Under the pieces are notes generated by a model that saw nothing but the letters and a program-made list of their open reading frames with translations, did no database searches and was not told where the DNA came from. Of a stretch of 64,000 bases of DNA, positions 39,969-40,778 are shown piece after piece (within the stretch, counting starts at the first letter, position 1; each line of letters begins with the position of its first letter). The DNA lies in the IMG/VR virus record IMGVR_UViG_2565956719_000002; one strand, written 5' to 3'. The position numbers and the translations under genes were made by a program. Origin of the DNA: a virus (Duplodnaviria > Heunggongvirae > Uroviricota > Caudoviricetes).

Positions 39969-40778
39969 ATGCAAGAAGAGAAACAACACTACCTCTACGT
40001 TCTGGTGCCGGAGAACGGAGATACTTTTAAAATCGGCATTTCATGTGGTCCATTGGCACGGTTTAAAGGGCTACAAGTGAATCCCGATTTTGCGCTTTCA
40101 CGGGTCTATCGTGGTACGCGTTTGGCAATAGTTAATCTTGAGCGGGCTTTACACGCAACCTTTTTCCCCTGGAATGCGCCGTGGGAGAAAAGCGCCGGTG
40201 GCGGGCATACTGAATGGTTTACACGAGAGTGTCTTGATAAGGTTTTGGCTCATATCGAATATCTAAATGATATGTGGGGAGGGATTCTCGAGCGGATTAA
40301 GTCGAATGATTTACTTCAGCGTCCAGTAGATGCTGCTCGCTCTTTCGAAAAAGAACTGGATGTTACTTCTATCGTGACTTTCAAAGATGACGCAGGAATG
40401 AGGGATGTGGCTTATGTCTCCATATCTGGCTATGAACCTGACGCGATCCGCGCTCAATGTGAATTGCTGAAAGCGATGTTTACGCTTCGGACTAAATATC
40501 CCTGGGAGACAGGGCGGGTGTGCTTCCCTATGGAAGAGTTAACCGCCACCATTGATTCCCAGCTTTACCACGATAATCCAGAGAAGTTTTTTAGCCTTTT
40601 AGCCGGTAATGGGCTTAACTGTGTGTCCGGACTGGGGCGAAGTAGAATCCAACATGCCTCGCTCTTCGGTCCCTTCTTTTACGATCGAAACGGGTGCTTT
40701 GAGGCTGAACTTCCGGCGCTTACGCGTGCTATAGATACTATCGATTTCGAACGATTATTCGCAGCTCTTAACAAATAA
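39969..40778 (+). CDS. T5orf172/GIY-YIG-like domain protein inserted between incA and parA
   Basis: YLYVLVPENGDTFKIGIS...GGHTEWF motif pattern. Confidence 0.45.
   Translation: MQEEKQHYLYVLVPENGDTFKIGISCGPLARFKGLQVNPDFALSRVYRGTRLAIVNLERALHATFFPWNAPWEKSAGGGHTEWFTRECLDKVLAHIEYLNDMWGGILERIKSNDLLQRPVDAARSFEKELDVTSIVTFKDDAGMRDVAYVSISGYEPDAIRAQCELLKAMFTLRTKYPWETGRVCFPMEELTATIDSQLYHDNPEKFFSLLAGNGLNCVSGLGRSRIQHASLFGPFFYDRNGCFEAELPALTRAIDTIDFERLFAALNK

Follow-up and report, generated by a model that had tools for sequence, protein, structure and literature searches.

Between the incA-like iterons and parA of a P1-like phage-plasmid lies a gene of 269 codons (39969..40778, + strand) for a predicted T5orf172-type nuclease. 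Our tentative interpretation is that of a selfish, free-standing gene of homing-endonuclease character, which occupies the incA/Ppar junction of P1-family replicons. We give this interpretation, which is derived from sequence comparison, a probability of roughly 0.45; nuclease activity, target and homing are inferred. The window, i.e. the whole stretch of 64,000 nucleotides that was analysed, belongs to a P1-like phage-plasmid of the SJ46/RCS47 (“p0111”) type. Its segment 38700-43200 has an identity of 98.4-99.0% with vB_EcoM-Ro157c2YLVW, SJ46, JL22, RCS47 and phi456, all of them phage-plasmids, and classical P1 can be aligned to this segment only from ~40848 on. Parts of the picture were known before: the product carries the RefSeq label “GIY-YIG nuclease family protein”, the gene is annotated in hundreds of relatives, and the literature mentions the gene as an unknown one, in that p0111 elements were noted to carry a repA' and the unknown gene gp57 in place of the IncY repA (PMC9603915). 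New are the recognition of a small clade restricted to the P1 family, with a fixed position next to incA-type iterons in three replicon types, the finding that the gene forms a clean indel in one pair, evolves fast and decays, and a C-terminal domain modelled as a winged helix with a possible likeness to Rep WH1.

Resistance genes, among them ESBL and mcr genes, are commonly carried in E. coli and Salmonella by P1-like phage-plasmids of the p0111 and IncY types, and the p0111 type always has the putative nuclease gene beside its replication-control repeats (41/41 sampled loci). If the product is a homing or exclusion nuclease that acts on related elements, it would help to explain how rep cassettes are exchanged between near-identical backbones and how two replicon types coexist in a population. 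If it polices replicons, there would be a protein-based, nuclease-mediated level of competition between replicons that drives the diversification and swapping of RepA and iterons in phage-plasmids. Should it be no more than a selfish gene in decay, replicon typing and vector design need not take it into account. In all of these cases, the gene stands outside the essential repA-incA-par machinery.

The borders of the region were determined by blastn against P1 (NC_005856). Homology stops at window position 38595, past the DnaA box and the Dam sites and just ahead of the P1 incC iterons, and restarts at 40845, 19 nt ahead of the annotated -35 element of Ppar. The p0111/SJ46-type replicon cassette between these breakpoints (38596..40844, + strand, 2249 bp) takes the place of the 1491-bp incC-repA-incA block of P1 (2507-3997 in our P1 locus L001). 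It begins with five direct, incC-like origin iterons identified by repeat search (38611..38716, + strand; spacing 21-22 bp, core TTGACTRTACGCGA), a layout also found in two related loci, L004 and L003. They are followed by repA (38792..39676, + strand), which according to Pfam (Rep3_N and Rep3_C) and the annotation of RCS47 encodes a Rep_3-type iteron initiator of 294 aa. This protein is 41% identical to P1 RepA (BLASTP); for SJ46 RepA, 42% has been reported (PMC5241659). The repeat search also yielded an iteron-like copy inside repA (39394-39409). Downstream of repA, an incA-like iteron array was found by repeat and pattern search (39677..39936, no strand assigned), with two copies in the origin orientation (39677 and 39701) and at least four inverted copies (39796-39810, 39858-39872, 39890-39904 and 39920-39934), and the ATG of the ORF is located 34 nt beyond the last of them. 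The first P1-homologous feature past the cassette is the par promoter Ppar (40864..40892, + strand; promoter-like TGTACA-17-TATTAT), which the blastn offset places on the annotated P1 Ppar (L001 4017-4045). It is followed by parA (40947..42143, + strand) and parB (42160..43161, + strand), whose products match P1 ParA and ParB with 99.7% and 100% identity, respectively.

The initial annotation had stated that repA-incA is directly followed by parA in P1-type maintenance regions, and had described the gene as an insertion between incA and parA. The first statement is right for P1: NC_005856 has incA, then ~190 bp of spacer and then Ppar and parA, with no gene in between, and tblastn with all four homologues described below detected no ORF remnant in the 213-bp incA-Ppar spacer of P1 (best E 0.4). 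The gene is absent from P1 and P7. However, the whole cassette 38596-40844 is a different allele, with other iterons and a RepA of only 41% identity, and by sequence comparison the gene is thus the last one of an alternative replicon cassette and not a simple insertion into the P1 arrangement.

As initially annotated, the ORF has its own terminator. An intrinsic-terminator-like hairpin with a T run (40786..40806, + strand) closes the cassette; the hairpin itself, GCCCC-TGAAC-GGGGC at 40786-40800, is located 8 nt past the stop codon and is followed by TTTTTTGTG. The Shine-Dalgarno/ribosome-binding site of the ORF is weak. Its base composition is unremarkable, so that a recent foreign origin is not indicated. 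A scan of 38000-41500 with Rfam gave nothing credible. That we are dealing with a real gene and not with a chance ORF follows from a pN/pS ratio of 0.33 and from homologues that three other, strongly diverged P1-like lineages have in this position. Between the repA stop codon and the ORF, neither a sigma-70-like promoter nor a terminator was predicted, and inspection by eye upstream of the ORF revealed only poor promoter candidates, which overlap the last iteron. As the ATG moreover directly follows the iteron array in all four lineages, we infer that transcription of the ORF starts either at the repA promoter, with read-through, or at a promoter overlapping the iterons. In both cases, expression would be coupled to RepA occupancy, and its level is probably low.

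The product comprises an N-terminal nuclease domain (aa 1-104; 39969..40280, + strand) and a C-terminal domain (aa 105-269; 40281..40775, + strand) that has no sequence relatives outside P1-like elements. The pattern that had initially suggested a T5orf172-type domain (YLYVLVPENGDTFKIGISCGP ... GGGHTEWF) is present in the translation, and a profile search confirmed the assignment: Pfam T5orf172 (PF10544) matches aa 8-85 with 26.2 bits (gathering cut-off 20, E=1.2e-5). The full length is matched by PHROG 2876 (function unknown) and the N-terminus by phrog_681 (“endonuclease”, 1.6e-9). NCBIfam contained no match and PADLOC-DB 2.0 no family at E<=1, and a PDB sequence search gave a small GIY-YIG protein as its best hit (E 0.25). 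Across 71 aligned sequences, Y10, K21, G23, R31, E58 and E82 do not vary, and H62, G79, W83 and F84 hardly do (H62, W83 and F84 conserved at >=90%); the catalytic-set residues are also invariant across the four P1-like homologues. Equated by motif position, these residues constitute the GIY-YIG catalytic set in its T5orf172 form. The same residue pattern is found in Gp88 of phage ICP1, in which the exchange E180A abolishes cleavage (PMC8263062).

Structure prediction with AlphaFold2 from the single sequence reached a pLDDT of 40 and was replaced by a run with the 71-sequence alignment (mean pLDDT 78). In this model, the N-terminal domain (about 90) has the GIY-YIG alpha/beta fold, residues 160-210 have values of 85-91, and the linkers 119-129 and 220-229 are poorly predicted. 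The C-terminal domain is modelled, on the basis of four sequences for this region, as an extended winged helix. Foldseek listed Slx1, then the WH1 domains of pPS10 RepA and MSBI1.176, RctB and many RepE54 entries, all with E >= 0.05; WH1 domains of iteron initiators were the best fold matches of the C-terminal domain in two independent searches. Matches in BFVD covered the N-terminal domain only and included ICP1 ORF88 (Odn, E 3.5e-4) and CapR-homology proteins. Sequence and model together describe a T5orf172 nuclease domain with intact catalytic residues joined to a predicted winged-helix domain, and the fold matches suggest a likeness of the latter to Rep WH1 domains, which is statistically weak.

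A recent origin of the C-terminal domain as a RepA chimera was considered and rejected at the sequence level. Comparing its profile with eight P1-family RepAs by hhalign gave a probability of 0.15% (E 0.39), and none of the ORFs of the window resembled it in BLASTP and phmmer searches. A Pfam search with the C-terminal domains of the four homologues found nothing.

Homologues of the protein were sought among 5.8 billion clustered proteins and 1.84 billion representatives. Apart from fragments of the same lineage, the C-terminal domain was covered by three homologues only: P0004 (44% identity overall), P0010 (31%) and P0011 (~40% over the N-terminus). About 75 further proteins matched aa ~4-120 only, with 30-43% identity. 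The divergent lineages were recovered only from Logan assemblies. All three full-length homologues sit between repA and parA of P1-like elements (loci L004, L005 and L006), with the ATG 20-30 nt beyond the last inverted incA-type iteron; including the window, the distance is 20-34 nt across the four lineages. For P0004, the called start lies too far upstream, within the iterons. The four lineages comprise three iteron/RepA types: the p0111-like type in the window and L004, the P1/IncY-like type in L005 (RepA 83% identical to P1 RepA, P1-type iterons) and a third type, with the iteron GGCTACTGNATGCTAC, in L006. More distant relatives of the N-terminal domain (P0012, P0013 and P0018) are encoded in a phage-like region, a defence-like island and a conjugative-type plasmid, in no case beside a rep gene. 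The term replicon-associated therefore has to be limited to the P1-like clade, and the full-length family is confined to P1-like elements among the sequences searched.

In PLSDB, the ORF was detected in 401 plasmids, all with >=95% nucleotide identity and nearly all with >=90% by translated comparison, and the repA part of the cassette in about 399, likewise at >=90-95% identity. The carriers are mostly Escherichia or Salmonella plasmids of 90-145 kb; 12 phage records contain the ORF as well. A sample of 80 IMG/VR loci, anchored on ParA, had the ORF in 41 of 41 loci with a p0111 RepA and in none of those with a P1 (IncY) RepA, ~21 of which have a P1-type par and 14 a P7-like par. It is also missing from L061, which has a fourth type of RepA, and from L003 (plasmid CP042620.1), where a cassette that is related in sequence (76% identity at the nucleotide level, 85% for RepA) and has the same iteron layout is found in a different context. 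Across the IMG/VR sample, the site between repA and parA holds either the ORF family or nothing. A scan of genome contigs (one genome per species) yielded a single Escherichia copy besides one weak match of no relevance, and the viral contigs, scanned with the ORF profile, contained p0111-type copies only.

Presence and absence at one site can be compared in L005 and L060. The RepA of L060 is 90% identical to that of L005 and its iterons are of the P1 type, but it is devoid of the ORF. Relative to L060 (and P1), L005 displays a clean indel within one cassette type, which consists of the ORF homologue and ~40 bp between the last iteron and the conserved CCTCCCTGYCCTTTT element ahead of Ppar. 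The comparison of the incA-parA interval proposed in the initial annotation thus does reveal an indel of the gene, although in another cassette type than that of the window. Conservation in all P1-like replicons with a role in maintenance, as opposed to a dispensable gene, is not what we found: the ORF is absent from P1, the IncY loci, L060 and L061, and it is inactivated in 7 of the 41 p0111 loci.

The exchange of cassettes can be followed in L004, L005 and L061. Their backbones are nearly identical (ParA 99.7-100%, flanking DNA 97-99%; the major head protein, the product of gene 23, is 99.5% identical between L004 and L005), but they contain three different RepA/iteron cassettes with the same breakpoints, and the ORFs of the L004 and L005 cassettes share only 28% identity. 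Between the window and L004, RepA is 84%, ParA 89% and ParB 67% identical, and the ORF 44% overall, with 64% in the N-terminal and 31.5% in the C-terminal domain. The ORF of L005 has its closest relative in that of L006 and vice versa (62% identity over the N-terminal domain), whereas the RepAs of these two loci, at 41.5% identity, are no closer than other pairs and the iterons differ. The ORF therefore does not seem to have simply co-diverged with its cassette, and its C-terminal domain does not seem to be constrained by the iteron type; this incongruence concerns one pair among four lineages with saturated divergences.

Within the p0111 lineage, pN/pS is 0.33 for the ORF, compared to 0.16 for upfA, 0.05 for parB, 0.02 for repA and 0.00 for parA. 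A value of 0.33 still means purifying selection and hence, probably, some use of the protein to its carrier. About one in six copies is inactivated (7/41 IMG/VR p0111 loci): four loci have the allele S112*, one has W68* and one, SJ46 itself, has Q228* (RefSeq CDS of 227 aa), and in L038 an IS200/IS605 element is inserted after codon ~98. The protein database additionally contains a cluster of 229 sequences starting at M102 and several frameshifted variants. Judged from these sequences, the gene is dispensable for replication, partition and phage functions, as the inactivated copies, including that of SJ46, indicate, yet it is not neutral.

According to our preferred interpretation, the product would be a site-specific DNA endonuclease from the T5orf172 branch of GIY-YIG superfamily proteins, catalytic in its N-terminal part and with a fast-diverging winged helix for DNA binding at the C-terminus. 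Its expression would be low and depend on transcripts that run on from the repA promoter, which RepA autoregulates, or on a promoter overlapping the last iterons. In a cell where two P1-like genomes come together, the protein may cut the related genome that lacks the ORF near the incA/Ppar junction. Recombinational repair would then copy the ORF, often together with the adjoining rep cassette, into the rival genome; alternatively, cutting would exclude the rival. A homing-endonuclease-like gene is suggested by the intact catalytic set, the free-standing gene with its own terminator, a site that is shared by several cassette types and polymorphic for presence or absence of the gene, a history that partly departs from that of RepA, the hypervariable putative DNA-binding domain, and relaxed constraint with recurrent decay where the gene is fixed. 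There is also a precedent, as T5orf172 genes of ICP1 are regarded as homing endonuclease genes, one of which became a replicon-directed nuclease (PMC8263062). Several observations count against homing. With the ORF in all 41 p0111 replicons, no recent homing event is visible there; an ancestral gene that was repeatedly lost could give the same pattern; pN/pS of 0.33 still reflects purifying selection; and the strict link to the rep cassette, together with the Rep-WH1-like fold, could mean a replicon-related function. Of the homing-endonuclease-like selfish insertion that the initial annotation had put forward as a possibility, the selfish character fits the sporadic distribution, the rapid evolution and the decay, but the gene is not a simple insertion with respect to P1.

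A replicon-related function could take the form of a weapon in replicon competition, similar to Odn of ICP1. The Rep-WH1-like domain would recruit the nuclease to iteron arrays, through contacts with iteron DNA or through WH1-WH1 pairing with RepA, and the targets would be competing P1-family replicons or incoming related phage DNA, with exclusion and not gene spread as the outcome. We consider this unlikely, if worth weighing. The gene always abuts an iteron array and is the last one of a swappable rep cassette, and the different rep cassettes on ~99%-identical backbones (L004, L005, L061) are what selection for nuclease escape would give. ICP1 Odn itself combines a T5orf172 nuclease with a RepA_N-like domain and cuts the PLE origin in an iteron-dependent manner (PMC8263062). 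However, hhalign gave a probability of <1% for the C-terminal domain against the local RepAs, and Pfam nothing. The window and L004 share the iteron consensus and have RepAs of 84% identity, but C-terminal domains of 31.5% identity, and the sister ORFs of L005 and L006 go with different iterons, which indicates that neither the cognate iteron nor the RepA type constrains the C-terminal domain. The frequent nonsense alleles also speak against a strong benefit. In its most specific version, a rep-cassette nuclease that docks on RepA or iterons, polices which related replicon establishes itself and is the plasmid-borne counterpart of ICP1 Odn, the idea is distinctly improbable.

The link to the replicon might also reflect a domesticated accessory factor that tunes RepA activity, handcuffing or expression of the par operon, for instance through DNA binding as a regulator comparable to CapR of PLE, its nuclease chemistry being secondary or lost. 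The association with p0111 repA is close to 1:1 (399 versus 401 in PLSDB, 41/41 in IMG/VR), the position is kept in four lineages, co-transcription is possible with no terminator predicted between repA and the ORF, and pN/pS below 1 indicates constraint. T5orf172 proteins can become repressors, and CapR-homology proteins are among the fold matches. We nevertheless regard such a role as quite unlikely, given that P1, the P7-like elements, L060, L061 and L003 maintain homologous replicons without the gene and that about 1/6 of the copies is inactivated in otherwise intact phage-plasmids, SJ46 included. In addition, the ORF evolves far faster than RepA, ParA and ParB, and the invariance of all catalytic residues would be unexpected if only DNA binding mattered. 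The other proposal of the initial annotation, a cargo gene for anti-phage defence or anti-defence that resides next to the replicon by chance, is in our view very unlikely. It would agree with distant N-terminal relatives in mobile elements, one of them beside Mrr- and WYL-type genes, with a fast-evolving variable domain as in an arms race, and with the defence genes known from phage-plasmids (PMC13221032). But PADLOC (E<=1) and NCBIfam were blank, the site, with the ORF family or nothing in it, is unlike a variable cargo hotspot, full-length members of the family are confined to P1-like elements, and the ORF is a single gene with no partner. We keep the homing-endonuclease-like gene as our preferred interpretation.

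T4 Seg proteins are free-standing GIY-YIG homing endonucleases, and the DNA-binding part of I-TevI consists of a zinc finger and a helix-turn-helix. In contrast to I-TevI, the C-terminal domain of the ORF product is a predicted winged helix without sequence relatives. With the GIY-YIG homing genes of phages (I-TevI and the putative T5orf172 homing genes of ICP1; PMC8263062), the ORF shares a catalytic domain of the GIY-YIG superfamily joined to a variable DNA-binding domain, and like them it is small, intergenic, equipped with its own terminator, sporadic at one site, fast-evolving and decaying. Unlike them, it sits in a plasmid-maintenance region and not among lytic phage genes, and its target site, cleavage and homing are predictions. 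Odn (Gp88/ORF88) of ICP1 likewise joins a T5orf172 nuclease domain to a domain of the replication-initiator type and is tied to iteron replicons and to the exchange of replicon modules (PMC8263062). The domain order is reversed in the ORF, however, and while the DNA-binding domain of Odn is 42% identical to a RepA_N domain (PMC8263062), the likeness of the ORF product to initiators is weak and at the fold level only. Furthermore, Odn is encoded by the attacker of the replicon and the ORF within the replicon, and an indirect sequence comparison suggests that the specificity domain of the latter, unlike that of Odn, does not follow the iteron type. CapR of the Vibrio cholerae satellite PLE is reportedly a domesticated T5orf172 repressor. 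It resembles the ORF product as a T5orf172 domain protein of a mobile element, and CapR-homology proteins are structural neighbours, but the catalytic residues of the ORF are conserved and a repressor role is unsupported here. SLX1- and URI-type GIY-YIG nucleases share the catalytic core only (14-19% identity) and differ in partners, substrates and biology. For the C-terminal domain, the known proteins with the best fold matches are the WH1 domains of RepE (F), RepA (pPS10) and Pi (R6K).

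Comparison of near-identical P1-like backbones indicates that the plasmid replicon of these elements is an exchangeable module. Among the backbones of L004, L005 and L061 (P1-like elements from Logan and IMG/VR), the flanking DNA is 97-99% identical and ParA is 99.7-100% identical, but each of the three backbones holds a different RepA/iteron cassette. The cassette breakpoints are common to all three. The upstream breakpoint, immediately 5' of the origin iterons, corresponds to position 38596 of the window, and the downstream one, 40-85 bp 3' of the T5orf172 ORF and before Ppar, corresponds to position 40844. 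It is these common breakpoints, together with the three cassettes in almost the same backbone, that argue for exchange of the replicon as a unit.

A p0111-related cassette with the same iteron layout and a RepA of 85% identity was found in plasmid pNCYU-26-73-5 (CP042620.1, 93.7 kb; L003). In this plasmid, both the ORF and an adjacent parAB are absent, and the cassette adjoins a gene annotated as a phage tail protein. Because of this context, p0111-related cassettes may spread in settings other than the canonical P1 gene order as well. A further replicon type may be represented by L068 (IMGVR_UViG_2791354993_000004), whose ParA shares 71% identity with that of the L004 type. None of the RepA types tested for is encoded upstream, and the locus lacks a T5orf172 ORF.

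The par genes were compared as well. Window ParA and ParB (parAB, 40947-43161) are 99.7% and 100% identical, respectively, to their counterparts in P1 (NC_005856), and those of RCS47 and SJ46 are ~100% identical to the window's (tblastn, rounded values). In the literature, ParA and ParB of RCS47/SJ46 have been described as matching the P7 proteins exactly and as distant from the P1 proteins (PMC5241659), a statement that does not fit the protein identities obtained here. P1 RepA is also found paired with a distinct par type (ParA 57% identical) in loci L073-L086 from IMG/VR.

Disrupted and shortened alleles of the ORF were also seen. In IMGVR_UViG_2645727563_000002 (L038, 2283-4500), the ORF is interrupted after codon ~98 by an IS200/IS605-family element, which encodes a TnpB-like ORF of 389 aa and a TnpA-like ORF of 141 aa, both assigned by eye from the translations. 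The reference genome of Salmonella phage SJ46 (NC_031129.1, 4324-5007) carries a truncated allele, Q228*, with a CDS of 227 aa, so that the end of the ORF's C-terminal domain is missing from the very element that serves as the type for this group of replicons.

Iteron-like copies were also detected outside the arrays. The repA coding sequence contains one such copy in the window (TGTTGACTATAAGCGA, 39394-39409) and in L004 (7610-7630), in both cases 698 nt 3' of the last origin iteron, and one at a similar position in L003 (4800-4813); these internal copies might serve in regulation. In parA, an exact iteron-core 9-mer (ATAGTCAAC) is present on the minus strand at 41115-41123. This is probably a chance occurrence, since iteron-core matches with at most one mismatch number 20 across the whole window, compared to 12 expected by chance.
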